Translations under genes and position numbers: made by a program
Shown: one piece after another, positions 10,508-28,448 of the stretch
Numbering within the stretch: position 1 is the first letter of the stretch
How the letters are laid out: every line of letters begins with the position of its first letter
Notes under the pieces: model-generated
The model's input: only the letters and a program-made list of their open reading frames with translations
Told to the model about the DNA's origin: nothing
Database searches by the model: none
Source: an uncultured Candidatus Saccharibacteria bacterium
GTDB taxonomy: Bacteria; Patescibacteriota; Saccharimonadia; Saccharimonadales; UBA4665
DNA: 64,000 nucleotides
Reading direction: 5' to 3'
NCBI GenBank assembly: GCA_964499935.1
Contig: CAZCMS010000001.1
Span: forward strand, 674,452-738,451

Positions 10508-10541
10508 AACCAATATTATACCACTTATAAATTATCTGATT

Positions 10542-11522: not shown

Positions 11523-11596
11523 CTTAAGGTTGTACTCGGGATTAAAAATATAAGGTAGATTTTATAAAGAAAGATGAGGATCTTACTAAGCTTCTC

Positions 11597-11690: not shown

Positions 11691-11839
11691 CTTACGGGCA
11701 CTCACTATGGCTACGGCCAGGCAGTAGAGGTGTCGTTTGCTGGTGAAACTATAATATATAAGCCTGAGAAGTGAAACGCGTATACAGTGTCTCATTTGTA
11801 GCATTTTAATCAGTAATATAAAAAGCTATAATCTGGTAC

Positions 11840-12853
11840 ATGACAGGAGCGCCTAAAAAGCCTTTGAATTTATTTATTGATACTAATGTTTTATTAGGAT
11901 TTTACCGTTTCACTGAGGATGACCTCGATAGACTTAGCCAGCTAGAGGATCTAATCGTAAAAACAAAAGATATAAGTCTTTTTGTCACGGAGCAGCAGAT
12001 TGATGAATTCCATAGAAATCGTGACGGTGTCATAGCTCAAGCGTTAAAGGAAGTAAGGTCTGAGATTGTAATCCCCAAGTTGTTTTCTGGACACCCTAAA
12101 TACCGTGAGATAACGAATGCATCCAGGGAGTTACGGAACAATATAGCGATGCTTAAGAGCGACACGCTTGAAGGGGCTCTACGGCAAGACTTGAAAGCAG
12201 ATAAAATTATCATGAGATTACTCTCATCTGCAATAAAAACCACACCAGCGTTTATAAAGGCAGCTAAGATCCGAATGGATATAGGTAATCCGCCCGGTAA
12301 GAATGGATCACTTGGGGATGCAATAAATTGGGAAATATTACTAGCGAATATTCCTTCGAGTGAAGATATACATATAATCTCCGTCGATAGTGATTATCGT
12401 TCACCGTTGGGTGATTATAATCTTAATACATTTTTGGAAAATGAATGGATTGATAAAAAGGGTGCAAAAGCGTACCTTTACGGCTCATTAAATGGCTTCT
12501 TTAGTCAACACTTTGCGGACATAAAATTAATTGATGAATATATCAAGGATAGTCTAATTGCTCAACTGGGTGAATCAAGTAATTTTGATCAGGCTAGGTC
12601 AATTATTAGAAAACTGCAAAGAATTGGTGGTTTATCTGAAGATCAAGTAAAGCGTCTTATGGTAGCCTCGACTACTAACGATCAAGTTTATGGAGCACAT
12701 AAGTATAGCCCGACTATTATCGGAGATAGGCTCTGGGGTATGATTAAACCTTATTGGAGTAGTCTTAGCGACATTGAGCAAGAGATATGGATTGATCATT
12801 TCCCTGATGAGCAGATGCGTGAGCGAGAAGAGAATCTTGAGCCTCCATTTTAA
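11840..12853 (+). CDS. PIN-like domain protein (DUF4935-like)
   Basis: 337 aa. N-terminus LFIDTNVLLGFY is the first acidic PIN motif. Later D/E-rich conserved positions (ISVDSDY) also fit. Confidence 0.5.
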   Translation: MTGAPKKPLNLFIDTNVLLGFYRFTEDDLDRLSQLEDLIVKTKDISLFVTEQQIDEFHRNRDGVIAQALKEVRSEIVIPKLFSGHPKYREITNASRELRNNIAMLKSDTLEGALRQDLKADKIIMRLLSSAIKTTPAFIKAAKIRMDIGNPPGKNGSLGDAINWEILLANIPSSEDIHIISVDSDYRSPLGDYNLNTFLENEWIDKKGAKAYLYGSLNGFFSQHFADIKLIDEYIKDSLIAQLGESSNFDQARSIIRKLQRIGGLSEDQVKRLMVASTTNDQVYGAHKYSPTIIGDRLWGMIKPYWSSLSDIEQEIWIDHFPDEQMREREENLEPPF

Positions 12854-13039
12854 GAGCTGGAATGTTGCTGGTGGTTCGTGACCCGTATGGGGAGCTGGGA
12901 CTTAGACAAGGCAACCCTGACGACTTAAGTCAGTAGTAGGTTGCCGAATTCGGTCTTCAGTCTCATGCCCGAAACACTTCTCGGCGCATAGTTTGAAGTG
13001 CGCTGTCCGGCCTCCCGAGCCAAGTCGCAATTAGACAAA

Positions 13040-13070
13040 GTTAGAGCCGTGAAAATGTTTCTAACTTTTT
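13040..13070 (+). terminator. Putative rho-independent terminator
   Basis: GTTAGA-14 nt-TCTAAC hairpin followed by TTTTT. It closes the GC-rich structured spacer 12860-13075. Confidence 0.4.
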
Positions 13071-13107
13071 GTATGCACAGAATTGAACCAATGTTACTAT
13101 TAACTTT

Positions 13108-13542
13108 ATGAATATAAACCCCCGCTTAGAAGAAATTGACGACTCACTTTACCGAGTTGCCGTACGGGCACTAATTGTATCTGACAACAAAATGTTGGCA
13201 GTAAAAGAAGTAGACGGGGGCGACTGGTGGGCTATCCCTGGAGGTGGCGTAGATTATGGCGAGTCTCTGAAAAATTGCCTATTGCGGGAGATCAAAGAAG
13301 AAATCGGCGTTCTGAGTGATTCCGTACTGAGCGACTTCCAAATCATTCACTACAACATCGGGAAAGTTGTAAATGGCGTTCCTCGAATGAACATATTCTT
13401 CAAAGCAGTCGTACCTCAGGACGAGATCGTGAGAACAGACCACATTGAAGAGTGGGGATGGTTCACGAAAGATGAGTTCATGGAGTTAGACATGAATCCT
13501 TCGTATGATAAAGCTGAGCTAGCTAAGATTATTTTTGCCTGA
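13108..13542 (+). CDS. NUDIX hydrolase
   Basis: 144 aa with a complete Nudix box: GGGVDYGESLKNCLLREIKEEIGV. Confidence 0.85.
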   Translation: MNINPRLEEIDDSLYRVAVRALIVSDNKMLAVKEVDGGDWWAIPGGGVDYGESLKNCLLREIKEEIGVLSDSVLSDFQIIHYNIGKVVNGVPRMNIFFKAVVPQDEIVRTDHIEEWGWFTKDEFMELDMNPSYDKAELAKIIFA

Positions 13543-13573
13543 TATATCTGCGTATACGGAATCTAGCTTTATT

Positions 13574-13604
13574 ACGGCTATTACTTCCTCTATCGTTGTA
13601 AGCC
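13574..13604 (+). repeat. Cassette-junction repeat, partial copy A
   Basis: ACGGCTATTACTTCCTCTATCGTTGTAAGCC aligns to copies at 14276 and 15251. Confidence 0.6.
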
Positions 13605-13618
13605 ATTAAGCTTATGCT

Positions 13619-13647
13619 TAAAGACTTCTTTGGAAGTCTTTTGTTTT
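13619..13647 (+). terminator. Rho-independent terminator
   Basis: AAAGACTTC-TTTG-GAAGTCTTT hairpin followed by TGTTTT. Confidence 0.6.
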
Positions 13648-13705
13648 GGCAAGAAAACAGGGGTGATGATTACAAAATAAGGCTTGTTTCTGCTATAATA
13701 GTTAT

Positions 13706-14257
13706 ATGCAAGATATAGATTCAGCCAGCAAAGACCGAGCCATAAAACTATTTGATAGTGCTGAGCTTGCATCGTTTGAAGTTGGAACAACGAAAGGTTT
13801 GCAGCAAATTCACAATTATCTCTTTGGCGGTTTATACGACTTTGCTGGCAAGATTCGATCCAAAAATATCAGCAAGGGGGGCTTCACCTTTGCGTCTGCC
13901 ATTTATCTAGTAAATGGTTTGGCCGAAATAGACAAAATGCCAGAAGCAACCTTTGAAGAGATTATTAAAAAGTATGTTGAGATGAATATAGCTCACCCTT
14001 TCATGGAGGGGAGCGGCCGCAGTACGCGCATCTGTTTAGACTTAATTTTGAAAAAAAACCTCAAGCAATGTATCGATTGGCAAAAAATAGACAAGAATGA
14101 TTATATGAATGCGATGCAGCGCAGCCCGGTCAACGATTTAGAGATTCGCGAACTACTACGTACTGGCCTCACGGACAAGATAGACGACCGAGAAGTATTC
14201 ATGAAAGGCATAGATCAGTCATACTACTACGAAGAGTCGGATGACTACAAAGGCTAA
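13706..14257 (+). CDS. Fic-domain protein, single-domain (class III-like)
   Basis: 183 aa. Fic motif [12 protein letters not shown]. The C-terminal SYYYEE sits where the class III inhibitory SxxxEG helix is found. Confidence 0.8.
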
Positions 14258-14275
14258 GTAGCCTCCTGCTTGGCT

Positions 14276-14335
14276 GCGGTTATAACTTCCTTTATCATTG
14301 CGAGCTAAAGTTAGAACCAAAATTACAGAGATGAG
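14276..14335 (+). repeat. Cassette-junction repeat, copy B
   Basis: GCGGTTATAACTTCCTTTATCATTGCGAGCTAAAGTTAGAACCAAAATTACAGAGATGAG is highly similar to 15251-15310. Confidence 0.7.
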
Positions 14336-14428
14336 AGTCTATATCTTCATTATGGGGTATGATTAATTCATGACGAATGCAGTTGATAATAACAGTTGGG
14401 GCTTATGGCAGCCTAAAGAACTCGCAAG

Positions 14429-15217
14429 GTGCCGAGAACTAAGGTTATGATGACTAAAAAAATAAAACCTGAAGCAATCACCAAAAAGAGCATAAAGCTG
14501 CAGAACCACTTAGGGTTGGCTGCAAGCATGTTAATCACCACTTTTATAATACTCAAAGTCTATGCAGTGGCTGGCTGGGATGCCACAACGGCTCGAGGCT
14601 TAATTGCAGCGACTGGCACAACCAACGTTGTAGTAGGTAGTCTCATTGCATCACTGCCAATCATATACTGGTCACTATTCATATTTGCATTACCTAGAAT
14701 CGAAAGAAAGCTAGAATTAAAAAGCAAAACCTCAGTTGAAAAATACGCAATCCTTACCCACTCATGGCCGATAATACTATTAATGTTTATTGTACCGCTT
14801 TTTATATTGCTCGCCGGACTAGCTCTCCTGACTCTAATAATTATAGACAATATTTTAACCAATAAGCGAAAGAGCAGAAATAGCGACATAAATTATGTAT
14901 CTAAATTTGAGGCTAATACAATTATGCTATCGTCGATTGCGCTTGTAATATTTACGAGCCTAGGAGTGCCCTGGCTCCCAGCGCAAGCAATAGATATTCC
15001 CGATGACGGAGTACAGGTAGGCTATGTCCTGAATAGCGGAAGTCGTTATTCAGAAGTCTTGTTAGAAAAACACCGTAAGCTCGTACGAGTCAGCATAGAC
15101 CGGACGGACTCTGCTAAGTATTGCAATGTTTCATCACATTGGGTGGAGCGTACCATTATTCAGGCTATTGATTATAAGCCAAAGTATCCTAGCTGTGCGG
15201 AAACTAAAAGTAAATAG
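14429..15217 (+). CDS. Hypothetical membrane protein
   Basis: 262-aa ORF with about 5 predicted hydrophobic helices and a soluble C-terminal domain. No recognisable family. Confidence 0.5.
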   Translation: MPRTKVMMTKKIKPEAITKKSIKLQNHLGLAASMLITTFIILKVYAVAGWDATTARGLIAATGTTNVVVGSLIASLPIIYWSLFIFALPRIERKLELKSKTSVEKYAILTHSWPIILLMFIVPLFILLAGLALLTLIIIDNILTNKRKSRNSDINYVSKFEANTIMLSSIALVIFTSLGVPWLPAQAIDIPDDGVQVGYVLNSGSRYSEVLLEKHRKLVRVSIDRTDSAKYCNVSSHWVERTIIQAIDYKPKYPSCAETKSK

Positions 15218-15250
15218 TTCGGCCACAAAGCTGCTAAATCTCGTTTTATC

Positions 15251-15310
15251 GCAGCCATAACTTCCTCTATCGTTGTGAGCTAAAGTTAGGACTAAAATTA
15301 CAGAGACGAG
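15251..15310 (+). repeat. Cassette-junction repeat, copy C
   Basis: GCAGCCATAACTTCCTCTATCGTTGTGAGCTAAAGTTAGGACTAAAATTACAGAGACGAG. Confidence 0.7.
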
Positions 15311-15381
15311 GATCTTTGTTTTTGTTTTTAAGGGGGTTAGAATAGAAACTACTATAACTCAACTCGTTGTATAATAAGCGT

Positions 15382-15987
15382 ATGACAGACTACTCTAAAA
15401 AGGGGCATTATTACATTCAAGAGCCTCGTTTCGAGCTCAGGTATCTCATGCCCTTATTACCAAAAGATGCGCATATGCTAGATATGGGCGCAGGCAATGG
15501 GAATAACACAAAACTCTTCCTCGAAAGAGGTTACAAAGTAACTGCAGTAGAGCCTAATCCAGCTGCTTTAAAAATTCTAAAAGAACTACAGAACAATTAC
15601 CCTGATCAGCTGCGAATAGTTAAGGATTCAGTTGATACATATAAGCCAAAACAAAAATTTGATGTGGTGATTTGTTGTATGGTCGTTCATTTCATGAAAG
15701 ATCACCAATCGGGAACTAAGGCCATCCAAGACATCCAATCATGGACTAAGCTTGGTGGCATCAACCTACTTACTGGCTATATGAGCAATCAGCCCTTATC
15801 AAAAGACTATTCGTTTTTGCTTAAGCCAAATGAATTATCAGAACTGTACGCCAGATGGAATCCCCTCTGGTATCAAGAAAGCTTCAGACTGACATGGAAC
15901 CGTATCTATAGCCTCAAAGACCTCCCGCGCCTAATACTAGGTAAGCGAGGTTTTAAGGCAGCAAGAATCATTGCCCAAAAAGCCTAA
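15382..15987 (+). CDS. Class I SAM-dependent methyltransferase (TehB-like)
   Basis: SAM motif I: LDMGAGNGNNT. Start set at ATG 15382 because TATAAT at 15370-15375 lies inside the longer track ORF. Confidence 0.75.
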   Translation: MTDYSKKGHYYIQEPRFELRYLMPLLPKDAHMLDMGAGNGNNTKLFLERGYKVTAVEPNPAALKILKELQNNYPDQLRIVKDSVDTYKPKQKFDVVICCMVVHFMKDHQSGTKAIQDIQSWTKLGGINLLTGYMSNQPLSKDYSFLLKPNELSELYARWNPLWYQESFRLTWNRIYSLKDLPRLILGKRGFKAARIIAQKA

Positions 15988-16227
15988 AGCAGTAGTACTA
16001 AATATTGCACCAAATCCAAAGAGTGGCGAAATTATTCGTATCATTCATGTAGGTTAATCGTATCATAGTGATACGATTATGGTTTTAACAGTCACAAAGC
16101 TTCGGAGCGCTAACTAAGGGCAGCGATTATACTAAAAATATTGTCAATTTACTGCTTACCGACTCTAACGTCAAACAGAGACGAAAGTTACAGGCAAGGA
16201 TGGCTCAGGATATTTGCTAAGTTCCTT

Positions 16228-16439
16228 GACCGACAAACGCTTGATACAGAGAGGTGGCAGTGAAAGATATCACTACTCTTAGTATCATCTGGTAGCGCAT
16301 GCTACAAGTCAAAATATTAAAGTCGAGAGTCTCTCGATCGTTCGAGTACAAATTATAGAGATCGTTTGATACATAACACCAGCGATCTTCATCATCGCTT
16401 TCACGTGTCACGATTGTTGGCACGATTTTGGCACGATTT
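16228..16439 (+). repeat. Dispersed repeat copy 2, interrupted by a 118-bp insert (16269-16386)
   Basis: Same left (GACCGACAAACGCTTGATACAGAGAGGTGGCAGTGAAAGAT) and right (CTTCATCATCGCTTTCACGTGTCACGATTGTTGGCACGATTTTGGCACGATT) halves as copy 1, separated by extra sequence. Confidence 0.6.
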
Positions 16440-16506
16440 AATTAACTTTTCGTTAAAAACACTGTAAAAGATTAATTTTTAACGTAAAGTATGCTATAAT
16501 AAGCAT

Positions 16507-17391
16507 ATGATAAATCAGATCACGAAAGATAGAATAGCTGCATTAAGGGCTCAGTATGAAGAGCTTATTCAAACATATCCCGACGCTGTTCGCGAGATTG
16601 CTATTTCTGAGATACCGGAAATGGTTTACAACTCTAACGCTATCGAAAATAGTACTTTGACACTTGAAGATACTGAAGATATCCTACTCCGCGACACTAT
16701 TCGCAAAGATCAAGATATCCGTGAAGTATACGAAGCCAAGAATCTTGCCAAAGTAACCGAACACTTGCTAGAGAATCCTAGTGAACCGCTCGATACTGGA
16801 TTGATCTTATTCCTACACAGGATGCTCCTTACCCAAATAAATGATGACTGGGCTGGCAAGTTCCGGCACGGTAAGCAGTGGGTGCGTATCGGTGCGCATA
16901 TTGGTGCTAATCCAGATTTTGTACAAGGACTAATGTCCGAACTTGTCGCAAGGTACAATAGCGATAATAATTTGTATTTCTTGGATGCAATAGCTTGGTT
17001 TCATGCAGAATTCGAAACCATACACCCATTTCCAGATGGCAATGGTCGCATTGGTCGTGTACTAATAAACCAACAGCTGATGCAGCTGGGGTATCCTCCA
17101 ATTATTGTACCCAACAAGGGTAAGCGCACGTATTACTACCCAGCTTTTGATCCATACCGCATAGATGGAAAATACGATGAATTTACTGCTTTATTCGCCA
17201 GTCTTTTGATTGAGTCATTGTATCGTCGCATAACTATACTGTCGTCTAAGAAAATTATCAGATTGTCCGAATGGTCAAAGAATAATAATGCCAACGTTAA
17301 TATAACAAGCAACAAAGCTCGTCGTGGCACAATACCAGCATTTCGTATGCGTAACAAGTGGATGATTTCTGCCAATTATAAAGAACAATAG
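16507..17391 (+). CDS. Fic-family protein (class II-like, N-terminal inhibitory motif)
   Basis: 294 aa with canonical Fic motif HPFPDGNGRIGR and upstream SNAIEN, which matches the (S/T)xxxE(G/N) inhibitory motif. Confidence 0.85.
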   Translation: MINQITKDRIAALRAQYEELIQTYPDAVREIAISEIPEMVYNSNAIENSTLTLEDTEDILLRDTIRKDQDIREVYEAKNLAKVTEHLLENPSEPLDTGLILFLHRMLLTQINDDWAGKFRHGKQWVRIGAHIGANPDFVQGLMSELVARYNSDNNLYFLDAIAWFHAEFETIHPFPDGNGRIGRVLINQQLMQLGYPPIIVPNKGKRTYYYPAFDPYRIDGKYDEFTALFASLLIESLYRRITILSSKKIIRLSEWSKNNNANVNITSNKARRGTIPAFRMRNKWMISANYKEQ

Positions 17392-17458
17392 CACTTGATA
17401 ATCCAGCGATAGATCTATCATGGATAACATTTTCGAATCGCTACGAGCATAACTTTGT

Positions 17459-17489
17459 ACTTCGATTTTTCTCCCAGAAAAGTCGAAGT
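17459..17489. terminator. Bidirectional terminator hairpin between convergent genes
   Basis: ACTTCGATTTTTC / GAAAAGTCGAAGT arms (one mismatch) with a 5-nt loop. Confidence 0.5.
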
Positions 17490-17490
17490 C

Positions 17491-20106
17491 TCACCTGAGC
17501 GAACTGAGCTCGGACAACTTCTCATCTTTCTTGTTGCTCAGGTGATTCTTTTTCGGTTTTTGCGCTGCACGTTTTTTCTCAACAAGCACTAGGTCTTGCT
17601 CCACGGGCGTAGTGATTCTGACTTGCGTTTGCTCTTGTAGCGTTTTAGCATACAGCAAACGAGAAGATTCTATAGCACGCTGACTGGTGTCCCTGTCGCC
17701 ATCGTCATCAACGACCACAGTCATACCTGACATTGACTCCTGTGAGTGTACTGCCGCTATGCGAATATAGTATGCGTAGGCTGGCAGGTTTGCTATCTCG
17801 CCTTGCTCAATGAAAGGACTAAAGAGTGGCAGTACGTATCTTTCATCGGCAGGGCTACCTGACCTAAAGCAAATGACCGTACCAACATTTGCCAGAATAA
17901 TATCGACAAGGCGCTGCTGGTCTTGCTGACTGGTAGACTGCTCGGCCATGGTGAGAAATAGTTTGTATTTTCGTGCTTCACTCAGCATCTGCACAAAACT
18001 CATGGTGGCAAAGTTCTGGAACTCATCAACGTAAAGATAGAATGGTACACGGTCATCCTGTCCAATCCGTGCTCGTCTCAGTGCTGCGGTCTGGAGTTTT
18101 GCCAGTATGGTCGTGCCGAATAGTGTTGAGGTGTCCTCACCGAGTAAACCTTTTGAAAAATTACAGATTAATATCTTCCGACTGGCAAGAATATCTTCGA
18201 AGTCTATCGTCGATTTAGGTTGCTCCAGTACCCGCTTTGCAGATCCAGAAAACAAGAAACGGCCAATTTTAGCAGTGATACCCGCTGCCATCTTGACTCG
18301 CTGGAATTCACCAGCCTTACCAAGTTCATTATCCCAAAAGTCCTTCAGGTGCTTATCTTCCAGATCCTTAACAACCTTACGTCGGAACTTCGTGTCATTG
18401 AGCAGCTCAAAGATAGTGAATAACGTCGACCCTTCAAGTGTGAGCGCAGTCTGTATCGCGTTACGCAGTACATACTCTATACGGTGACCGCCTGAGTCAT
18501 CTTCGGAAAATATCTTACGTAGCACAGAGATAGTCGCCTCGGTTACAAGATCCTTTTCGCGGAGCAGGTCATCGCCCTCAATACCATCAGGAAGCTCAAG
18601 TAGATTAACACCGATGGGATGCATCAAGTCGTCTGGATTCATATAGATTACATCTGGGATACGAGATTCAGGAATATAGCGCAGTAATCGCTCGGCAAGA
18701 TCACCGTGAGGGTCAAGCACCGCTACGCCGTTACCATTCTGAATATCCTGCAATATGCTATAGAACAGCATGGTTGTCTTACCGTTACCCGTACCACCAA
18801 TAACATAGACATGTCGTTCACGCTCAGCCTCAGTCAGCCCTATTGGTGTAACCACTCCGTGATGATGACTCTCTCCCAGTAGCACCGCGAGTTGCTGGCC
18901 AGATTTCAGCGATACAGGTGCTGGAAGCGTACGACTCAGTGAGCTCGCTACATTGTCTGTTTTGCTCATACGCCGAGAGGGTACGTGATACAACGCGGCC
19001 AACTCTGCAACAGACAGTACCGAAGATCTCTTTTGGAAGAGCGATGGCAAGCGACTATAGCTCAGTGTATGGTTGAGCCGATGAATCACGGGTAGTCGCT
19101 TCTTAGCCTTCAGTTCCTGGTATGGCGGCACGCTCAGCCCATCGAGGCTAGATTGGATAGCTTGTCGATGTTCTTTGGAATGGGGGCTAGTAATAAGCAA
19201 ACGAACATCTGTCCGAAACAACGGTCGACTCACTTTTTGGTGCATGGTCTGCATCAGTTCTAGTTCAAAAGCACTGAGTGTTCGAGCTGGTCGATCACGT
19301 AAGGAGGCCGGCAACTGCTGCCGAAGTTGTTTTTGTTTACTATCGTAATAATTTTTATGGCCATACGTCGTGCCCATATAGACTTCAGACGTCAGACTCG
19401 TCATGCCATTAAGGCTACTCGCAAAGAACCGAGAAACATGCCCTATGAGTGGCATCTGCCAACTACTTATTTCACTGAGGATGTTTTCGTTACCTAAGAT
19501 TTTATGTGTCAAGGTGTTCGCTTCGCGCAAACGCACCGGTCGAGTAACTAACTGTAAGGTAATCGATTCGTCGTCCTCAAGTTTAGTCATAGCACCCATA
19601 ACATAACCCAGGGGATCATGACCTTCAAATAATGAGGTCAATGTAAGTGGCATGACGTAGTGTCCAGACTGCTTAAACACCGTAGTATCGCTATGCTGCT
19701 GAGGTTGTTCGACCACGGTGCGGACTTTCGCATCTGGTACATAGCTTGTCAGCATTTTGTGGAGTACTTTTACGTACTTTGCTTCGCAGGCGATACGGTA
19801 GCGAATGCCCTCTGCTTTAGTTGAGGCTATCTCAAAACTCACGTGCGGTTCACGTCCGATCAGTCGCTCACGCAAGGTGCGAGACGAACGCAACCCATGA
19901 AAAACAGTGAAGAGCTGTTCGGTTGCCTCAGGTGTCTTTTCAATCGAGGCTGGTGGTGTCATTTCAAGCCAGACTAATTCTCGATTCAGTAAATACCGCC
20001 AATGGAGCACCCAAAGGATCATACGCATAAGTAGTACGGCGACAATGAGAGCAACCACAATGCCAACTACTATTGGCCAGTAATGAGTAATGGCGCTGGT
20101 GTCCAT
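17491..20106 (-). CDS. Type IV secretion coupling protein (TraG/TraD/VirD4-like ATPase)
   Basis: 871 aa with N-terminal TM helices, Walker A GGTGNGKTT and Walker B-like FYLYVDEFQNF. Confidence 0.8.
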   Translation of the reverse strand: MDTSAITHYWPIVVGIVVALIVAVLLMRMILWVLHWRYLLNRELVWLEMTPPASIEKTPEATEQLFTVFHGLRSSRTLRERLIGREPHVSFEIASTKAEGIRYRIACEAKYVKVLHKMLTSYVPDAKVRTVVEQPQQHSDTTVFKQSGHYVMPLTLTSLFEGHDPLGYVMGAMTKLEDDESITLQLVTRPVRLREANTLTHKILGNENILSEISSWQMPLIGHVSRFFASSLNGMTSLTSEVYMGTTYGHKNYYDSKQKQLRQQLPASLRDRPARTLSAFELELMQTMHQKVSRPLFRTDVRLLITSPHSKEHRQAIQSSLDGLSVPPYQELKAKKRLPVIHRLNHTLSYSRLPSLFQKRSSVLSVAELAALYHVPSRRMSKTDNVASSLSRTLPAPVSLKSGQQLAVLLGESHHHGVVTPIGLTEAERERHVYVIGGTGNGKTTMLFYSILQDIQNGNGVAVLDPHGDLAERLLRYIPESRIPDVIYMNPDDLMHPIGVNLLELPDGIEGDDLLREKDLVTEATISVLRKIFSEDDSGGHRIEYVLRNAIQTALTLEGSTLFTIFELLNDTKFRRKVVKDLEDKHLKDFWDNELGKAGEFQRVKMAAGITAKIGRFLFSGSAKRVLEQPKSTIDFEDILASRKILICNFSKGLLGEDTSTLFGTTILAKLQTAALRRARIGQDDRVPFYLYVDEFQNFATMSFVQMLSEARKYKLFLTMAEQSTSQQDQQRLVDIILANVGTVICFRSGSPADERYVLPLFSPFIEQGEIANLPAYAYYIRIAAVHSQESMSGMTVVVDDDGDRDTSQRAIESSRLLYAKTLQEQTQVRITTPVEQDLVLVEKKRAAQKPKKNHLSNKKDEKLSELSSLR

Positions 20107-20657
20107 AGTGGTGCTCCTATTTTACTGTGGATGAAATTGTAGTATGCAGCGGAATCTTTGCTGAAGGTGCGAGTGCTCACGATATTGAGACCTTTGACGT
20201 TCATTTCAGATATTGTCCATGCACCCGTGACAGCATCTACATCAAAGACGTAGGCAACATGCCCAAACTCACCACGATCACTTTGAAAGACTGCGCCGAC
20301 TCGTGGAGTGTGGTTCACCTCATATCCATCAGCTCTCGCCCGATCATCCCACGTATTCGCATTACCCCAAGTCGCTGGAATAGGACTACCCGCCCAGAGA
20401 CGCATCGCAAACGACCAGTACGTACAGTTACCCCAAGCGTACGTATTACCTGGTACTTCTGGTCCCATATAAAAACCTTGCGTGGCTGCTGCTTCGGCAT
20501 TTGGAGTGGCAGCCAGAAACGATAGCGCTTCCTCGCCCAGTGCTAACACCGACATAAAGGGCAGGCTTACAATCACCACCAGACTTACGACAACTGCTGC
20601 GATGTACTTACGTGTACCACCAGAGTTCATTAAGGTGACGACGAGACCTGTATTCAC
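20070..20657 (-). CDS. CHAP-domain peptidoglycan hydrolase
   Basis: 195 aa with an N-terminal TM/signal, catalytic Cys context GNCTYWS and His context GHVAYV. GTG start overlaps the VirB4 stop (GTGA). Confidence 0.75.
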   Translation of the reverse strand: MNTGLVVTLMNSGGTRKYIAAVVVSLVVIVSLPFMSVLALGEEALSFLAATPNAEAAATQGFYMGPEVPGNTYAWGNCTYWSFAMRLWAGSPIPATWGNANTWDDRARADGYEVNHTPRVGAVFQSDRGEFGHVAYVFDVDAVTGAWTISEMNVKGLNIVSTRTFSKDSAAYYNFIHSKIGAPLWTPAPLLITGQ

Positions 20658-22387
20658 GAATAGAGCTCCGCAGGATTGGTAGTAATGAGCGGATGTTCTT
20701 TCGGTGAGGCCACCACTTGCACTGCAACGTGATGCTGATCGGCAATAATCAGGGCATCACCTCGATCACAAGTAAGCAGGAACTGTTTCTCGTATTCACT
20801 CAGATTAAATTCGCTAACAACGTTTTTAATCGTGGTCGTATCTTGACGCATGAGAATACGAAGTGCACTTTGCGATGCAATGGCTCGTCCATAATCAGAT
20901 CTTAGAAAGTCATTGGCTTGCTGAGATATGATCGACACACCGAGGTAGTACTTGCGAGCACGACGCACGAGGCCTGACACAAATCGTGCAGACTCTTCAT
21001 GCTCAAGCAACATCCAACCCTCATCAATAATGAGGAGGCGCTTTTCGGGATTAGCTTTGACTTGGTTTTGTGTGAAATTCGAGATGATCAACATCATGAT
21101 TTGACGCAAGCTTTCGGGCAAGTCTTTAATATCGAAGATAACAAGACGGTTATCGAGTTGAATATTGGTATGCGCGTTAAAGACACTTGAAAGACTACCG
21201 GAGATATATTTCTCCAAGCGTTCACAGAGTTTGATCTGTCCAAGGCTGTGAAGTTCGGCATAGAAATCTTCAAGCAATGGCATCTGGTCTTTGTGTTTTT
21301 TATAGACTTTGAGGATGGCCTTATCTACCGCAGCTTTCTCGCGGGAACTAAGGCCTTCCGCCATCAACCCAATCACTTCAGTTAAGTCTTGAGCGTGTTC
21401 AGATAGGTCGTCGCCTTTATGAAAGGTGGTCGCAAGATCAAAGGGGTTAATCTTCTCGCTGCTTTTGGCTGACAATTTAATGTACGTGCCGTTGACCGAC
21501 TCAGCGAGCCGTTTATATTCACGCTCGGGATCAATCACAATTACTTTTGTGCCTTGCATAAGCTGACGGAGTATCTCAACCTTGGTTGTGTAGCTTTTAC
21601 CTGAGCCACTCTGGGCAAACACAATTGAATTGGCGTTATGGAGACTAAACCGATCAAGGATAACAAGACTATTGTTAGATTTGTTGACGCCATACAAGAT
21701 ACCAGACTCTTGCACGAGCTCACTACTCATGAACGGAAAGGTCAGTGCAGCCGAGCTACTATCCAAATTTCGTTTCTGAGCTAACTGATCTTCTCCTCGT
21801 GGCAAAATTGACTGCAAAGCCTCAAGCTGTTGGTAGCGAGCGATCTTGCTATAAAACAAGCGTGCCGATAAAGTCGCTTCAAGTAGTTTCGTAATCTTGT
21901 TGAGTTCCTCTAGGCTATCTGCGCGAAGACAGACGTAGATACTCATCTGAAACAGTTTTTCTTGGCCACGTTGGATTTTATCTCGCAGTTCAATTGCTGA
22001 TTCAAGTGGGTCGGTAATTTCGCTGCCGACAATCTTACCAGCCCGCATCATGGCGCGCTTGGTTGATTCAAGCTCAGTAATCTTACGATGCAACTTTGGC
22101 AGTGCAAGGAGCGCGTTCACTTCGTGTACATGATAGGAAATATCGCAGTCGTGGTTGAAGTTGATAATACTGTCCATCCAGCCAGAATTTGCTACGAACG
22201 GATAACCGGCGATGAACAGGGTACGGATATAAACGCCGTCAAGGCAGAGATAGTCTGCCTGCTCCTCCAGACCAGCATAGCTCAGTACATCAACGGCATC
22301 TTGCTCACCAAAGGCCAGAACTCGTTCTTTGGCCTTCTGCTGTCGTTGCTCGCGCTTCTTTGCAACTTTTTGTATAACTTGCTGCAT
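20654..22387 (-). CDS. virB4: VirB4/TrbE-like T4SS ATPase
   Basis: Walker A AQSGSGKSY and Walker B LLIIDEGW. Start set at the internal ATG (MQQVIQK) behind GGGAGGA, directly after the upstream gene stop. Confidence 0.85.
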   Translation of the reverse strand: MQQVIQKVAKKREQRQQKAKERVLAFGEQDAVDVLSYAGLEEQADYLCLDGVYIRTLFIAGYPFVANSGWMDSIINFNHDCDISYHVHEVNALLALPKLHRKITELESTKRAMMRAGKIVGSEITDPLESAIELRDKIQRGQEKLFQMSIYVCLRADSLEELNKITKLLEATLSARLFYSKIARYQQLEALQSILPRGEDQLAQKRNLDSSSAALTFPFMSSELVQESGILYGVNKSNNSLVILDRFSLHNANSIVFAQSGSGKSYTTKVEILRQLMQGTKVIVIDPEREYKRLAESVNGTYIKLSAKSSEKINPFDLATTFHKGDDLSEHAQDLTEVIGLMAEGLSSREKAAVDKAILKVYKKHKDQMPLLEDFYAELHSLGQIKLCERLEKYISGSLSSVFNAHTNIQLDNRLVIFDIKDLPESLRQIMMLIISNFTQNQVKANPEKRLLIIDEGWMLLEHEESARFVSGLVRRARKYYLGVSIISQQANDFLRSDYGRAIASQSALRILMRQDTTTIKNVVSEFNLSEYEKQFLLTCDRGDALIIADQHHVAVQVVASPKEHPLITTNPAELYS

Positions 22388-22388
22388 A

Positions 22389-23048
22389 CTACAATCCTCC
22401 CTCAGCCTGTACGAGTGCAGTGTGCATAAGCTGCAGAGCTTGCTCAGTGAGTGGCTGTAGCTTAGCTTGCGATGGATTATAGAAACTATAGAACAGATCA
22501 AGAATTTCGAGACTCGATAGCTGGCGAGTATGCATGCCGACGCGGGTCATACCTTTACTGACAATGTCGAGCTTGAGCGATAGCTGTTCCTTCACCAGTT
22601 CAAAGTTTGCTTTGCTATTACCAACATAGGGCACAATAACGTAGAAATGACGGGTTAGTATCTTGTTATTCGTAATGAGGGAACGAATAAACTCATCGTA
22701 GTATTCGAGCTGCGAACGGTAGATAGCTTCCGGCTCATTGTCTTTGCGAAGCGCCACATCGGCCAGATATTTATCCATATCAATTTCACGGGTGCGAATC
22801 AGAATCTGTAAACTACTGCCAACCGAGTTCAAGAAGCTCTCATAGGTATCAATAATCGCGTCCTGTTCGTCTTCACTCCTGAGTTCAAAGTTGAGTGATG
22901 ATACCTGTAGTACCGCCCGGTACTGGTGACGGGGTAACATAAGGATACCGTCACGTACCCCTTGAATATCTACCTGGCTACGACTTGACGCTTTGGCTTT
23001 CGACTTCTGTAAAGCGAACATGGAGGCCTCCTTTCTTGGTTGTTTCAT
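22389..23048 (-). CDS. T4SS-associated hypothetical protein (resembles the N-terminal domain of Gram-positive VirB4 homologues)
   Basis: 219 aa in the T4SS operon. The pattern DIQGVRDGILML..YRAVLQVSSLNFELRSEDEQ recalls VirB4/TcpF-type N-termini. No ATPase motifs. Confidence 0.4.
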   Translation of the reverse strand: MKQPRKEASMFALQKSKAKASSRSQVDIQGVRDGILMLPRHQYRAVLQVSSLNFELRSEDEQDAIIDTYESFLNSVGSSLQILIRTREIDMDKYLADVALRKDNEPEAIYRSQLEYYDEFIRSLITNNKILTRHFYVIVPYVGNSKANFELVKEQLSLKLDIVSKGMTRVGMHTRQLSSLEILDLFYSFYNPSQAKLQPLTEQALQLMHTALVQAEGGL

Positions 23049-23499
23049 ATCTTACGCCAGCTTCGGGGTTGTTGAGCGCCGACAGGATTTTGCTTGATAC
23101 ATGAAGTGGCAATCGGTCAGGTACGGCTGCGACTACCTCTAGGCTTTCTTCCTTCAGTTCCGTACCTGTCTCGACCTCACGGTAATCTTGCCGCAACTGA
23201 GTGGTATTTTTGTTCCATATATAGAGCTGAGGTCTCAGGTTGTATCGGAGAATGATCAGGAGCCAACTGGCCAAAATCTTGCCACGAATACGAATCGTCA
23301 AGATCAGACAGATGACCGCTACTATCGTCATAAGAATATATTTGTAGATAGTGCCTGCCATCATGGGCGGAGGTAAAACGTACAATCCAACACTGACAAA
23401 GATCGGGACAACGAGCAGTACTATTTGCGAAAAGCCAAGGCTGCCAATGATCCGATCCTCAATAGTCGTCACTTGCGCGGGAACAACAGTTACTTTCAT
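22978..23499 (-). CDS. PrgI/VirB3-like small membrane protein
   Basis: 173 aa. N-terminus MKVTVVPAQVTTIEDRIIGSLGFSQIVLL followed by two TM helices, as in PrgI-family proteins. Confidence 0.5.
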   Translation of the reverse strand: MKVTVVPAQVTTIEDRIIGSLGFSQIVLLVVPIFVSVGLYVLPPPMMAGTIYKYILMTIVAVICLILTIRIRGKILASWLLIILRYNLRPQLYIWNKNTTQLRQDYREVETGTELKEESLEVVAAVPDRLPLHVSSKILSALNNPEAGVRYETTKKGGLHVRFTEVESQSVKS

Positions 23500-24989
23500 A
23501 TTTTCTCTCCTTTCTTAGTGGTATTTACTTTTGTTTTCATATCCTCGACAGCAGCACTGCGCGATGTGGGCTCCGATGCCTCGTACGTTGATCCTGTTTT
23601 TTGAGACACGCCTTTTGGCGTTGGCTTTGCGTTATAGGCCATCTGAGCAGTACCCCGTTTATTTTCAGCACTTTGCGACTGTCCTGTTCGTATCGCCTGA
23701 TTTTCAACACCTGGCTGTATCCACTTTTTCTTCGCCGTATCTGCCTTGGAGCTTACTGCTGTGGCTGCTGCTTTGCCACCACCAGCAATGTAACTGACAC
23801 CGTTCATAAACTGGCCACCAAGCTTGCGAGCATTGCGCGATCCAAGACTGACGTAGCTAAATTGCATCATGACACCCTGTGTACGAAGTAATGCCATGAC
23901 CGTGGCGAGCCCTACGATCATCGCCAAAAGCGTATCTGGCGCCTGATTACTATTCACGGCTGACATACCTGTAAACAATGAGGCTGCCAGTTGCAGGATC
24001 ACCACATGCACGAACAGGACGAATATTGTTGAGAGATACGTCTTCGCTGCTGTCTCCGAGAAATCTCGAAAGCCAGGCACGAGCCAGAGAAGCACCACCA
24101 GTGGCGATAGTACCGCACCAATAAACAATGTCACCAAACGACCGACGTAATAGACCAACAGTATGACCGTAAAGATCAGAAATGCCATCATCATGAGCAG
24201 GGCAGCAACTCCCTGACCTCCAGATTCTTTAACGACGCTCGTAAGTATTTGCCATACCGACGAACTACCTGACAGTTTACCGACGGCCTGGATAAGCACG
24301 TTGGACAGCTCAATAATCCCATCAATCAGGAACAGCGACGTGTTAATCAGCAGGAATATGAGCCCAACTCTCGGAAGAAGGTGCTTAAACTCTATCTCGT
24401 CAAATCCAAAGCTCGCAGCACTCATGACATGTAATCCGATCAGCGCCAGTATCACCACAAACAGCGCATTCGCAATCGCCACCATGCCAAGCCACAGATT
24501 AAACACACTTTGGTTGTCCGCCATCAGCGGCGTTGCTTTCGTAAAGAAGTCTAATGCTGCCAGAAATGGCGAGGCCACTGCTTGAATAATGTTATTTAAG
24601 AACCCAGTGACAGCCTTAATCAAAATGTCGACAAGTCCGTTGCTGACGCTATTTGGTGGTATTGCCTGTAAACTCGGCAAACTACTTTGCTGTGTCGCCG
24701 TGTTATGCCCATAGGCATTCACTAGAATCGACGTCAGTGTTACTGCTGCAAGGACTATCACCATGCCGATCAATGCACTTTTTAGCACATGCTTAGCATG
24801 CTCCATCTGTTCAGGCCTACCGGCACTGGTCATATACATATAGCCCGAGTTCACAATGAAGAACGTACAGACAATGCCAGCTAACGCCGCAAAGAGTCGA
24901 ACAGTCGGCGTTACCCAATCTCTTACAACACTAACGGCACTCGATGCATCAGCAAAGAAAGATAGGTGGATGAGAAGTATGTCACTCAT
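23496..24989 (-). CDS. VirB6/TrbL-like polytopic T4SS channel protein with N-terminal pilin-like segment
   Basis: 497 aa with about 8 TM helices and a Lys/Thr-rich C-terminal tail. N-terminal segment SGYMYMTSAGRPEQMEHAKHVL is similar to the upstream pilin-like gene. Confidence 0.55.
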   Translation of the reverse strand: MSDILLIHLSFFADASSAVSVVRDWVTPTVRLFAALAGIVCTFFIVNSGYMYMTSAGRPEQMEHAKHVLKSALIGMVIVLAAVTLTSILVNAYGHNTATQQSSLPSLQAIPPNSVSNGLVDILIKAVTGFLNNIIQAVASPFLAALDFFTKATPLMADNQSVFNLWLGMVAIANALFVVILALIGLHVMSAASFGFDEIEFKHLLPRVGLIFLLINTSLFLIDGIIELSNVLIQAVGKLSGSSSVWQILTSVVKESGGQGVAALLMMMAFLIFTVILLVYYVGRLVTLFIGAVLSPLVVLLWLVPGFRDFSETAAKTYLSTIFVLFVHVVILQLAASLFTGMSAVNSNQAPDTLLAMIVGLATVMALLRTQGVMMQFSYVSLGSRNARKLGGQFMNGVSYIAGGGKAAATAVSSKADTAKKKWIQPGVENQAIRTGQSQSAENKRGTAQMAYNAKPTPKGVSQKTGSTYEASEPTSRSAAVEDMKTKVNTTKKGEKI

Positions 24990-25009
24990 GGCCGAGGCCT
25001 ACCTATCTC

Positions 25010-25354
25010 TTAGCTGCCCCCAAAGGCATTAGTTGCCAGTGTTGCCACGATATTACTGATGACAAAAGCAGCAATCACGATAGCTAAGCCGATAGCCGAC
25101 CAAGTGAGGGTACGTTTTGCCTTATCTAGCTGCTCAGGATTACCCGAACTTGTGATGTAGGTAAATCCGCCGACCACAAAAAAACCGGTCGCAATGAGAC
25201 CGGCCAAACCTGCAAGCGCTTGAATCACGCCTCGGACAAAGTTTTGAACTTGTCCTATATCTCCCCCGGCAGCAAACGCCGGGGCACTCACCGCTAACGG
25301 CATCCCCAACGCCACAAATGCTGCGACAAAAAGTTGTTGTTTATGCTTCTGCAA
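25010..25354 (-). CDS. VirB2/TrbC-like pilin
   Basis: Signal-like N-terminus ending AFAA, then two hydrophobic helices around TYITSSGNPEQLDKAKRTL. TTG start chosen behind GGAGGA; the track ATG at 25432 lacks an RBS. Confidence 0.5.
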   Translation of the reverse strand: MQKHKQQLFVAAFVALGMPLAVSAPAFAAGGDIGQVQNFVRGVIQALAGLAGLIATGFFVVGGFTYITSSGNPEQLDKAKRTLTWSAIGLAIVIAAFVISNIVATLATNAFGGS

Positions 25355-25676
25355 CTTGTTTTCCTCCACTAAATAGTTGATACAAGGGAAATGTATCACA
25401 CTTGTAAAGCCATAAATACAGCTTAAGCGCAATCATAAAAACATAACAATTATTATCAACAGGTGCGAAAACATTGACTATTTTACAATATACTTTTTTG
25501 CATTTTTATCGAAAGATGTCTTAATTTAATAATTATTTAATAATCTAGCTCCAGTTGGTGCTATGGTTGCCACCCCTATATTTAGAATAAGCCCAGAGAA
25601 GATAAATGAGCCTGCAACCCTACTTCAACGTATCTTATAAACCATGTAACTTTGCCTGCATCAAGGACTGTCTAGG

Positions 25677-26666
25677 CTACTGTAATTCGGCTTTAAGTAT
25701 TCTTGCTAAAGCATTCATACTATTAAATTCATAGAATGCAAGGTATGCCAGCGCAAGTTTTCTGGCGTCAGTCTTACGAAGACTGACGCCTTTGCCAATA
25801 GAACTAATAAGGATAGCGTTTGCAAGCATCCGGCCAGTTCGCTTATTGCCGTCTTCAAAAGCCTGCAGGTATGGAACAAGAGTCAACGCTAGCTGTGCAC
25901 GAACAAAAGGGTTTTTTGTACGGCTGATAATAGAGAGTATTGTTTCCATATTTTCTCTCAACAGAAGGGGATTGGCGAGTGGCTCATAATTGCTTGCACT
26001 AATTCTAACGATCTTTTTTCGGATCCCGGCATCGATTCCGAGATTGCGACCAATAATCCTATGGAGCTCTTCAACGGAACTGAAAGCGATACGGTCTGTA
26101 AATAATTCATGGTTCTCAACAATGAATGCAATAGTATCTTTATGATTGAGTATCATCTGAGTCTCAAACTCAGTTCGATTTTTTGCCTTAATACCCTCAA
26201 CAAGAAGGAGTTGAGTATCGAGCAATGTGTAGGTGTTGCCTTCAAGCGCAGATGATTTCCATGAGAGCTCTATCGTCAGGTGTTCTAGTTCTTTTGCCGA
26301 CATTTTATTGCCTGTTGTTAGTTCGGTGACTTTGCTATAGTCACTGAAAAGATTATCAAGCTGCTGGCCTGATAATGAGTCCAGCCAAGTAATAAAGGCA
26401 TGACGGAATATACTTTGTGGACGATTCTCGTCTTCTAGAAGTTTATCGGCTATCATCGCGTGCATAACGGCTTCGTAGCTAGGACTATAGCTGGGACTAT
26501 TATTTGTGCCACTCTTACTAATAAGCCCAATGTCAGTAAGCCTCGCGAGTGCCCTCTGAATAGAGCGAATATCTACGTCTGGTAGATGCTTGCTGATTTC
26601 GGATGATGTCGTATCACCATTGAGTAAGTACAAGAGTACATACGAAGTTCTTTTGGTTATGTTCAT
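25677..26666 (-). CDS. Fic/Doc-family protein with N-terminal winged-helix domain, degenerate active site
   Basis: 329 aa with a wHTH N-terminus and inhibitory-type motif SSALEG. The active-site region QAFEDGNKRTGR is Doc-like (NKR) with Gln in place of the catalytic His. Confidence 0.7.
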   Translation of the reverse strand: MNITKRTSYVLLYLLNGDTTSSEISKHLPDVDIRSIQRALARLTDIGLISKSGTNNSPSYSPSYEAVMHAMIADKLLEDENRPQSIFRHAFITWLDSLSGQQLDNLFSDYSKVTELTTGNKMSAKELEHLTIELSWKSSALEGNTYTLLDTQLLLVEGIKAKNRTEFETQMILNHKDTIAFIVENHELFTDRIAFSSVEELHRIIGRNLGIDAGIRKKIVRISASNYEPLANPLLLRENMETILSIISRTKNPFVRAQLALTLVPYLQAFEDGNKRTGRMLANAILISSIGKGVSLRKTDARKLALAYLAFYEFNSMNALARILKAELQ

Positions 26667-26995
26667 ACGACAATTTTAGCATTTATTTTTATATTTTACG
26701 CATTTTTGTCGTATCCAAAGAGATTTTAACAGCTGTAACGAACATGTCTCGAGCAATAGCAGTAGGTAGGCACGCCTTTAGTGCTGTTTTGTATTTTTCT
26801 TGCGCTCTTCCTTTACGATTACTGGCTCTCAACTAGTAGCACATTTTATATTGAAACTCTTTTGCGCCCCACTTAGAATCGATAGATACCCTAAGTTGTT
26901 CTTAAATACTTCAAAATAGACTTTATATGACTAAATGGACGAGCGGTTTACTTTATACCAAAAACCACTCGCTTTGGGCATTCGAATTCCATATT

Positions 26996-27706
26996 CTAAT
27001 CGATTCTATTGAGTATCCCTCCGTAATTATAAGGCGTAAACTTATCCCCGATAAAAATGGGGTAGGCGGGGCTACCAACATTCATGGCGTCAGCGAGCTC
27101 AGGATCAAGTGGCTTGAATGCTTTGAGTATTTTAGTATCTAGCCCGAGACAATCTCTGTCCCTAAGCGTCATACGGTACATAAATTTGTAACGCTCAACC
27201 TCTGGATATTTGTTAAATTCTCTCTGTTTAGTAAGCGACGTTATTTTCTCACGCCACAATGCAACATTATTTAGTTCACTCTGCATACTGATCTCAACAG
27301 AGATGCAATTGGGAGCATATTTATTCATGCATTCGTAATCTGCAACAATCACACGCTTGAGACCAAGAAATCCTGAAACTGCAAATAACCACTGCTGTGC
27401 ACTTCCGCCAACAAAGCTGCAGTCGTTGCCCGGACACCATGTATTGTGAAAATCCAATATCAGGTCATATCGTTGACTCATTTCCATCAATTCAGCTGCC
27501 CGTCTCTCCTCAAGCACCTTACTATTAGCGTCACCAGGAAAAGATCGATTCAGATCTTGTCCCGTAAAACGAATATCTGCACTTACGGCTTGTTCGTTTG
27601 CGATAACCGAATCAATCCCTTCAATTGGTTTTCTGAGTAGAGACTCAACGAGTTCGATGCCAAGTGTTTCGTTGCCGTGCATTCCGCCAATTATTAGTAT
27701 TCTCAT
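26996..27706 (-). CDS. Succinylglutamate desuccinylase/aspartoacylase-family zinc hydrolase
   Basis: 236 aa. N-terminus MRILIIGGMHGNETLG is the family zinc-binding signature. Confidence 0.75.
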   Translation of the reverse strand: MRILIIGGMHGNETLGIELVESLLRKPIEGIDSVIANEQAVSADIRFTGQDLNRSFPGDANSKVLEERRAAELMEMSQRYDLILDFHNTWCPGNDCSFVGGSAQQWLFAVSGFLGLKRVIVADYECMNKYAPNCISVEISMQSELNNVALWREKITSLTKQREFNKYPEVERYKFMYRMTLRDRDCLGLDTKILKAFKPLDPELADAMNVGSPAYPIFIGDKFTPYNYGGILNRID

Positions 27707-28371: not shown

Positions 28372-28399
28372 GTTATTTCCTTGTAATTTTATTGCTATA

Positions 28400-28427
28400 C
28401 CAAAAACGCCAGCATCGTGCTGGCGTT
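28400..28427 (-). terminator. Rho-independent terminator
   Basis: AACGCCAGCA-CGA-TGCTGGCGTT followed by TTTTT on the minus strand, downstream of the TrpR-like gene. Confidence 0.65.
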
Positions 28428-28448
28428 CATCTTGGTATCTAAAACGAC

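Follow-up and report, generated by a model that had tools for sequence, protein, structure and literature searches.

Three Fic-domain genes as probable independent cargo of a mosaic island with an accessory type IV secretion system in a Saccharibacterium

The window analyzed here is a 64,000-nucleotide stretch from an uncultured Candidatus Saccharibacteria bacterium (GCA_964499935.1, contig CAZCMS010000001.1, positions 674,452 to 738,451). Within it, three genes with Fic domains, designated Fic1, Fic2 and Fic3, lie on either side of a gene cluster for a type IV secretion system (T4SS). An initial annotation made from the sequence had put the three genes forward as candidate host-directed effectors of the T4SS, and had named toxin or defense modules on an island as the alternative. 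The evidence presented below favors the alternative. The three genes, and the promoter region of Fic3 with its N-terminal winged helix-turn-helix (wHTH), are as follows.

13706..14257, + strand: Fic1, 183 aa, single-domain class III protein of the NmFic type (Pfam, NCBIfam, PDB alignment)
16507..17391, + strand: Fic2, 294 aa, class II (SNAIEN, HPFPDGNGRIGR), with a conserved C-terminal tail of ~60 residues
25677..26666, - strand: Fic3, 329 aa, with an N-terminal wHTH, SSALEG and the Fic core QAFEDGNKRTGR
26665..26714, - strand: promoter region of Fic3 with the inverted half-sites ATACGACAA / TTGTCGTAT, conserved upstream of six orthologues

All three open reading frames (ORFs) are real: they translate without stops and pass the Pfam Fic (PF02661) cut-off of 24 bits, with scores of 46.3 for Fic1, 71.9 for Fic2 and 33.2 for Fic3. 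The motifs that had been reported for them, SYYYEE at the C terminus of Fic1, SNAIEN with HPFPDGNGRIGR in Fic2 and SSALEG in Fic3, were present as written. However, the three regulatory classes that had been proposed reduce to two, because the inhibitory helices of Fic2 and Fic3 are both N-terminal to the core, a position that puts both proteins in class II. The assembly contains four Fic matches, three of them within these 13 kb. The fourth, and the only one outside the island, is a Doc-type gene (DHPFADGNKRTG, ~130 aa) at G000:C9:20164-20406 on the - strand (G numbers denote genomes, G000 being our own assembly; L numbers, fetched loci or contigs; C numbers, contigs of our own assembly). Similar genes, 127-150 aa in length, occur commonly among the relatives.

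Fic1 matched the NCBIfam NmFic equivalog (NF046029) with 287 bits against a cut-off of 230, and aligned with NmFic itself (PDB 3s6a) over residues 1-177 with 115 of 177 positions identical (65%, E 2e-75). It also matched the PADLOC model PDC-S04 with 300 bits. Its C terminus retains the inhibitory Ser, the run of Tyr residues and the Glu; the residue after the inhibitory Glu is another Glu, not the Gly/Asn of (S/T)xxxE(G/N), and the same is seen in 113 of 120 homologues of the Saccharibacteria type. The Fic motif deviates from HxFx(D/E)GNGRxxR by a Ser in place of the Asn (an AGC codon, 14012-14014, in the assembled sequence). This Asn is present in every one of the 119 close homologues that gave a readable motif and also in the 86% identical orthologue of G058, and the change to Ser appears to be private to the present genome. 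NmFic is autoinhibited, becomes activated by auto-AMPylation and AMPylates GyrB (PMC12894286): its inhibitory Glu blocks productive ATP binding and its tetramers hide the target site, while monomers first AMPylate themselves on a Tyr in the inhibitory helix and go on to modify GyrB (PMC12894286). By homology, Fic1 would act in the same manner: it would be an AMP-transferase kept inactive by oligomerization and by the inhibitory Glu at its C terminus, and once released it may modify a target of its own cell such as GyrB, so that growth stops.

In Fic2, SNAIEN is in register with TVAIEG of the FICD inhibitory helix and the motif HPFPDGNGRIGR is canonical. Profile comparisons matched FICD (E 1e-24) and CdFic (E 1e-20), and PADLOC matched it to PDC-S04 with 127 bits and, along part of the model, to SoFic with 108 bits and E 2e-31. 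A basic tail of ~60 residues is common to the Fic2 orthologues. It contains no Pfam domain at E up to 1 and gave a weak, in-register hhalign match to the HTH_17 domains (excisionase-type) of relatives (E 4.5e-4, probability 33%); the tail is thus possibly HTH_17-like. SoFic has been described as an abortive-infection defense (10.1101/2022.05.11.491447; PMC12249575). On family grounds, Fic2 is predicted to be a class II AMP-transferase that the inhibitory Glu near its N terminus keeps inactive, and it may function like SoFic, as a toxin or as a module of abortive infection.

For Fic3, the Doc-like core of the initial annotation was borne out as far as the NKR residues are concerned, but the description omitted that the catalytic His is replaced by Gln: Gln268 (loop QAFEDGNKRTGR) aligns with the catalytic His of FICD. 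The SSALEG motif, which does not vary within the family, aligns with the inhibitory helix of FICD, and the match of the N terminus to a winged helix is weak. Of 120 close homologues, 118 have QxFxDGNKR, as do 104 of the 107 motif-bearing representatives at 50% identity, and every orthologue and paralogue of Fic3 among the relatives has the Gln. At an E value of 1e-10 or lower, this wHTH-Fic(Gln) family numbers at least 5,299 proteins; clustered at 50% identity, it has 684 representatives. It predominates in Saccharibacteria and other Patescibacteria, with scattered members in many further phyla; at 33-38% identity it takes in many Patescibacteria classes, Alphaproteobacteria, Akkermansia, Bacteroidales, Clostridia and others.

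The operator layout was the same in six of six Fic3 orthologues: ATACGACAA, then ~35 nt containing a -10-like TAAAAT, then TTGTCGTAT overlapping the start codon. Two groups of Fic3 paralogues each have a palindrome of their own at the same position. Exact half-sites occur in the window at the Fic3 promoter only; sites with one mismatch numbered 24 against 16.0 (standard deviation 3.7) expected, a marginal excess that 1 of 100 shuffles reached. The 244-nt region 5' of the pilin gene contains no Fic3 half-sites, and no conserved partner gene of the family was found within 3 kb at 80 loci from many phyla. Since the operator is confined to its own promoter, with none at the pilin gene and no conserved neighbor, Fic3 fits an autoregulated solo gene and not a member of the T4SS operon. 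Judging from the wHTH and the operator, Fic3 would bind its own promoter and thereby repress itself. The canonical general base is missing, and the conservation of the phosphate-binding loop and of the inhibitory Glu points to a nucleotide still being bound; the Fic domain may be a ligand- or partner-binding regulatory domain and not a canonical enzyme. We tentatively suggest, as a possibility well short of an even chance, that wHTH-Fic(Gln) proteins are a distinct, undescribed class of single-gene modules in which selection removed the catalytic base of the Fic domain but left its nucleotide-binding loop and inhibitory Glu, and the domain serves as a sensor gating an autorepressing winged-helix binder, or carries out non-canonical chemistry, the whole acting as an addiction, defense or element-control switch on mobile islands. 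This His-to-Gln family is the one element of the locus with real potential for novelty, the remainder being a new example of a known arrangement. A very large Gln-for-His Fic subfamily with its own operator also offers a concrete target for biochemistry.

The initial annotation had the Fic genes flanking the T4SS cluster, which is correct, the T4SS genes lying at 17491-25432; the system encoded there is, however, an accessory one, with the core T4SS located elsewhere. Its genes and a candidate relaxase gene are listed below.

17491..20106, - strand: VirD4-type coupling protein (Pfam TraG-D_C, T4SS-DNA_transf, TrwB_AAD_bind), in 43 of 49 related loci
20070..20657, - strand: CHAP cell-wall hydrolase (Pfam CHAP, 58.6 bits)
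20654..22501, - strand: VirB4 ATPase (Pfam P-loop_TraG, 90.4 bits)
22389..23048, - strand: TraC-like T4SS component (PF26593 on the near-identical sister-strain gene; 47 related loci)
22978..23499, - strand: PrgI / VirB3-like protein (Pfam PrgI, 29.1 bits)
23496..24989, - strand: VirB6/TrbL-like protein with an N-terminal pilin domain (Pfam T4SS_pilin and TrbL)
25010..25432, - strand: VirB2-type pilin (Pfam T4SS_pilin and TrbC)
10737..11522, + strand: candidate relaxase of the MobC type with a wHTH at its N terminus (PF13814 Replic_Relax, 25.1 bits; Pfam cut-off 25.3)

The genome contains two VirB4 genes, the second of which, at C1:101820, is 37% identical to that of the window. This core VirB4 has a counterpart in every relative, whereas the window type (63-88% identity) is scattered over 51 of the 401 genomes of the order, in many families, and in none of the three genomes of the same genus; the T4SS of the window is therefore accessory. 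Similarity of the accessory VirB4 is also out of step with that of the core, as in G303, where the core protein is 74% and the accessory one 86% identical. The window T4SS is thus a second, horizontally mobile module of the conjugation type, with the core T4SS elsewhere on the chromosome. Across 49 related loci carrying the same accessory T4SS type (L028-L036, L042-L081), the recurrent genes were the seven machine genes alone, the CHAP position being held by CHAP in 28 loci besides the window and by an M23 peptidase in 15. Frequent neighbors were a small PLD-like nuclease, an Xre regulator, a PF13814 protein and a large serine recombinase, and the flanks of the module held type I restriction-modification genes and a reverse transcriptase. 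The relaxase candidate clusters with eight homologues in seven related loci, adjoining the accessory T4SS or a few genes from it, and these homologues are usually paired with a large serine recombinase. PF13814 belongs to the MobC relaxase superfamily (PMC5357655), and in a survey of Patescibacteria MobC was the commonest relaxase class, often near a coupling-protein gene (PMC12102498). With the mating-pair genes and coupling protein all present (VirB2, VirB6, PrgI, TraC-like, VirB4, CHAP and VirD4), these and the MobC-type relaxase candidate would form the island backbone.

Linkage of Fic genes to this T4SS was not conserved. A search of the 49 related loci with a panel representing every Fic type encountered in this analysis found a Fic-like gene within ~9 kb in a single locus, that of a 33% identical wHTH-Fic paralogue in G031, where VirD4 is missing. 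With the Pfam Fic hidden Markov model, the Fic genes of 10 of those genomes were placed either on a different contig or at a distance of more than 100 kb, and 18 of the 50 other genomes with the accessory T4SS have no Fic domain at all (as counted from the per-genome rows). Among 60 relatives, there were one orthologue of Fic1 (86% identical, in another family), three of Fic2 (~70%) and five of Fic3 (60-66%), none of them in the same genus; by type, Fic1-, Fic2- and Fic3-like proteins occurred in 5, 15 and 13 of 61. Orthologues at 60-92% identity are common in Saccharibacteria and sporadic among the relatives. In public assemblies, those of Fic3 adjoin PIN or TrmB genes or glycosyl hydrolases; those of Fic1 adjoin a distant PF13814 gene or belong to a three-Fic cluster; and those of Fic2 are found in a recombinase-bearing element, among NUDIX genes or beside MazG. 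The Fic genes of relatives are hence sporadic and unlinked to the T4SS, an outcome that the initial annotation had itself named as refuting its proposal. The effector proposal, which rested on an adjacency that relatives do not conserve, is not supported. Clusters of Fic genes were also seen elsewhere: L082:3872-8279 (GCA_043743105.1) holds three within 4.5 kb (one of 348 aa, one of 215 aa with a helix-turn-helix, and an orthologue of Fic1 at 90% identity), the ~18 kb fetched from this contig contains no T4SS gene, and at least eight other genomes of the order have Fic pairs within 12 kb.

The interval between the VirD4 and relaxase genes, where Fic1 and Fic2 lie, was different in every related locus. 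Its other contents in the window are given below.

11840..12853, + strand: PIN_12 nuclease-like cargo gene (Pfam PIN_12, 49.4 bits; weak PADLOC PDC-S34)
13108..13542, + strand: NUDIX hydrolase cargo gene (Pfam NUDIX, 65 bits; PADLOC PDC-S07, E 8e-12)
14429..15217, + strand: orf262 (262 aa), cargo, no Pfam or PADLOC match
15367..15987, + strand: TehB-like S-adenosylmethionine-dependent methyltransferase, cargo (Pfam TehB, 62.8 bits)
16020..16095, - strand: remnant of another wHTH-Fic gene, with its promoter (-35 box), a palindromic operator and the first six codons (MNDTNN)
16409..16438, + strand: three direct CACGATT repeats ~70 nt 5' of Fic2, with a second copy at 11660-11689, 5' of the PIN_12 gene

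Evidence of exchange came from the sister-strain contig L038 (Logan SRR30535871, another sample), which matches window positions 17449-37763 at 95-99% identity, including the whole T4SS, and encodes a Fic3 with 98% protein identity. This identity ends 42 nt past the VirD4 stop codon. Directly after VirD4, at L038:19253-20439, the sister strain has a complete Pycsar system, with PycC matched along its entire length at 255 bits and PycTM at 101 bits; this system replaces the block of Fic2, methyltransferase, orf262, Fic1, NUDIX and PIN_12 genes. The PIN_12 gene has no counterpart in the related T4SS loci. The palindrome of the wHTH-Fic remnant is perfect (AATCGTATCA-TAG-TGATACGATT), and G031 and G044 have intact paralogues whose promoter and gene start align with the remnant. 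The CACGATT repeat box has four matches in the window against zero expected, and a duplicated segment of ~107 nt holding the triple repeats brackets the 4.5-kb block from the PIN_12 to the methyltransferase gene. We read the remnant and the bracketing repeats as traces of turnover in the slot, and the triple repeat may represent a shared operator. A related box is found just 5' of the 348-aa Fic gene in L082.

A conserved element of ~45-85 nt follows the NUDIX gene (13560-13603), Fic1 (14262-14347) and orf262 (15237-15322), and recurs after the Fic1 orthologue of L082 and beside the Fic2 orthologue of G060 (L013). It was considered as an integron attC site, and this was rejected: two of the three copies fold like shuffled sequences (z -0.8 to +0.4) and there is no integrase. 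Hammerhead or other known RNAs at the cargo junctions were likewise dismissed, as an Rfam search of 10000-27500 gave tRNA only at E up to 1.

The Fic genes, the T4SS and the cargo lie together on a genomic island whose borders are as follows.

10138..42760, no strand: genomic island of ~32.6 kb, from tRNA-Gln to an SLT transglycosylase gene, absent between the same flanks in same-genus genomes
10063..10137, + strand: tRNA-Gln(UUG), left border of the island (ARAGORN; Rfam 64.9 bits)
10542..10569, + strand: att-like scar, a 28-nt copy of the tRNA-Gln 3' end (direct repeat, 86% identical to 10110-10137)

The island is missing from the three same-genus genomes, whose synteny with the window ends at tRNA-Gln; two of them, G001 and G002, align to window positions 10-10139 and again from ~42904, on one contig and with 0.3-5 kb between. 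The sole tRNA-derived repeat lies 432 bp from tRNA-Gln. A search of the right end of the island for such a repeat (attR) found none, and neither a serine recombinase homologue nor an integrase domain was found among the ORFs of the island. Since recombinase and right-hand repeat are both missing, the island may no longer be self-mobile. Elsewhere on it, a 1.14-kb insertion relative to the sister strain (28811-29954, single-copy in the genome) takes in the greater part of an ORF of 389 aa (28736-29905) that matches nothing in Pfam or PADLOC, and a ThiF/E1-like gene of a ubiquitin-like operon (31174-31995), with weak PADLOC matches to E1-E2 and BilD, is a further defense-type candidate. The window lies on contig C1 (885 kb, 43.7% G+C) of an assembly of 131 contigs and 1.47 Mb. 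Contigs C2, C4, C10 and C12 have 55-62% G+C against 43.7% for C1, and probably reflect a second organism mixed into the assembly. The organism had been described as epibiont-like, which is right: the named close homologues of the studied genes are from Candidatus Saccharibacteria / Saccharimonadales, and the genomes of the relatives measure 0.6-1.4 Mb.

Taken together, we consider it probable, with a fair margin for error, that the three Fic genes are independently acquired and independently regulated cargo of a mosaic island, built on an accessory conjugation-type T4SS backbone at tRNA-Gln, and that none of them is a dedicated substrate of the neighboring T4SS. Fic2 and Fic1 occupy the variable slot between VirD4 and the relaxase candidate, and Fic3 stands alone 5' of the pilin gene. 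The genes are most likely toxin- or defense-type modules, an alternative that the initial annotation had allowed for and that is now backed by the position in a cargo slot, the PADLOC matches and the Pycsar system at the same slot in the sister strain.

Several points weigh against this interpretation. Fic1, Fic2 and Fic3 have no known activity, toxicity or defense phenotype, and the Asn-to-Ser change may weaken or abolish the activity of Fic1. Fic2 scored 30 bits against the NCBIfam SoFic model, the cut-off of which is 550, and PDC-S04 and PDC-S07 are computational candidates and not validated systems. Without a recognizable integrase or a right-end repeat, the present mobility of the island is unproven. 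T4SS substrates may be encoded away from their machine, so that the missing linkage weakens the effector idea and does not disprove it. Finally, a T4SS ATPase gene was found within 10 kb in 6 of 80 wHTH-Fic(Gln) loci, in addition to G031; this is somewhat above a rough, uncomputed estimate of ~3-4% for a genome of such size and leaves room for a loose functional tie. Such a modest co-occurrence of the Fic3 family and T4SS genes is, however, expected if both ride on mobile islands.

Among the other explanations, the one that fares best is that the Fic proteins are ordinary physiological regulators, which reversibly AMPylate gyrase, EF-Tu or chaperones and came to lie on the island by accumulation. 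The three families are widespread in Saccharibacteria with their inhibitory Glu motifs kept, FICD and SoFic, likewise with an inhibitory Glu, both AMPylate and de-AMPylate, and several orthologues are located among housekeeping genes. Their sporadic presence in relatives, with none in the three same-genus genomes, argues against such a role, and the identity of Fic1 across families (86%) and to the Neisseria protein (65%) points to horizontal transfer. The Fic genes moreover cluster with one another and with toxin-antitoxin, restriction-modification and other defense-type genes. We therefore regard a physiological function as improbable.

It is still less probable that the adjacent T4SS secretes the Fic proteins, passing them to the epibiont's bacterial host, or to conjugation recipients in the manner of Bartonella VbhT, to modify targets there. 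Bartonella and Legionella are known to deliver Fic domains through T4SSs. None of the three genes is more than 7 kb from the T4SS genes, weak NCBIfam matches to VbhT and AnkX were obtained, the Fic2 tail is basic, and the wHTH-Fic loci with nearby T4SS ATPase genes could be taken in the same direction. The VbhT match, however, amounts to 44 bits against a cut-off of 800, and neither a secretion signal nor a BID-like domain was detected: Fic1 is single-domain with no extension, and the Fic2 tail, free of BID at E up to 1, is weakly HTH-like. Added to this are the linkage in 1 of 49 loci and the sister strain with Pycsar in place of Fic2 and Fic1; the relaxase candidate and the serine recombinase of relatives, which mark the machine as a DNA-transfer element; and the DNA-binding domain of Fic3 with an operator at its own promoter.

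Equally doubtful is the view that Fic3 is a transcriptional regulator of the T4SS operon that couples a nucleotide or stress signal to the conjugation genes, since its wHTH, its place on the same strand immediately 5' of the pilin gene (an order kept in the sister strain), a paralogue adjoining the same T4SS type in G031 and paralogues near VirD4 or VirB4 in L113 and L123 are set against exact half-sites restricted to the Fic3 promoter, 48 of 49 related T4SS loci without such a gene, and orthologues of 60-70% identity in unrelated contexts with no conserved neighbor.

The epibiotic life of Saccharibacteria depends on T4SS, and genes beside a T4SS are for this reason tempting effector candidates in these organisms. 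The present case shows that adjacency can mislead: the machine is a second, mobile copy of the conjugation type, and its neighbors are interchangeable. Returning to the reading of the Fic genes as island cargo, the locus illustrates that ultra-small genomes carry elements resembling integrative and conjugative elements (ICEs), with slots for defense- or toxin-type genes (Fic, PIN, NUDIX, Pycsar and a ubiquitin-like operon), and that NmFic-type enzymes circulate between phyla.

As for known systems, the backbone resembles the class 8 integrative and mobilizable elements (IMEs) of streptococci, defined by VirD4, a MobC relaxase and a serine integrase, and FATA-type ICEs (Coluzzi et al. 2017, PMC5357655). 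In the relatives, VirD4, PF13814/MobC and a serine integrase likewise adjoin mating-pair genes of the Gram-positive type, as in the backbones of both element classes; unlike IME class 8, the copy in the window has no integrase and its PF13814 match falls just below the Pfam cut-off.

Each Fic protein also has a recognizable counterpart. Fic1 shares with NmFic of Neisseria meningitidis (class III; PDB 3s6a, 2g03, 5cgl) its size, a full-length alignment and the SYYYE helix, and differs from it by the Ser for Asn in the motif and the Glu for Gly after the inhibitory Glu. Fic2 has the N-terminal (S/T)xxxE(G/N) helix and the HPFxDGNGRxxR motif of the class II enzymes FICD/HYPE, CdFic, BtFic and SoFic. 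Unlike FICD and SoFic, it lacks tetratricopeptide repeats and C-terminal domains of the SoFic type and has a short family-specific tail instead; unlike SoFic, it leaves no space for an AS1-like small gene behind it, with 99 nt to the end of VirD4. Fic3 shows the Doc-type Lys in its loop (DGNKR against (D/N)(A/G)NKR), but differs from Doc in its Gln for His, its length of 329 aa, its wHTH and its in-cis inhibitory motif, and from the Phd-Doc pair in having no Phd-like antitoxin gene.

A published precedent is the Fic network of Campylobacter fetus subsp. venerealis, where class I, II and III fic genes located by T4SS on an island and an ICE act as toxin-antitoxin modules (Sprenger et al. 2017, PMC5651007). 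Both cases combine several fic classes, canonical as well as degenerate, with inhibitory helices and a position beside T4SS loci. The C. fetus genes are paired and cross-neutralizing (fic1-fic2, fti3-fic3, fti4-fic4), whereas those described here are solo genes with in-cis inhibitory motifs; the degenerate member in C. fetus is without a Gly and an Arg of the motif, and that of the present island, Fic3, without the His; and the host there is C. fetus and here a Saccharibacterium.

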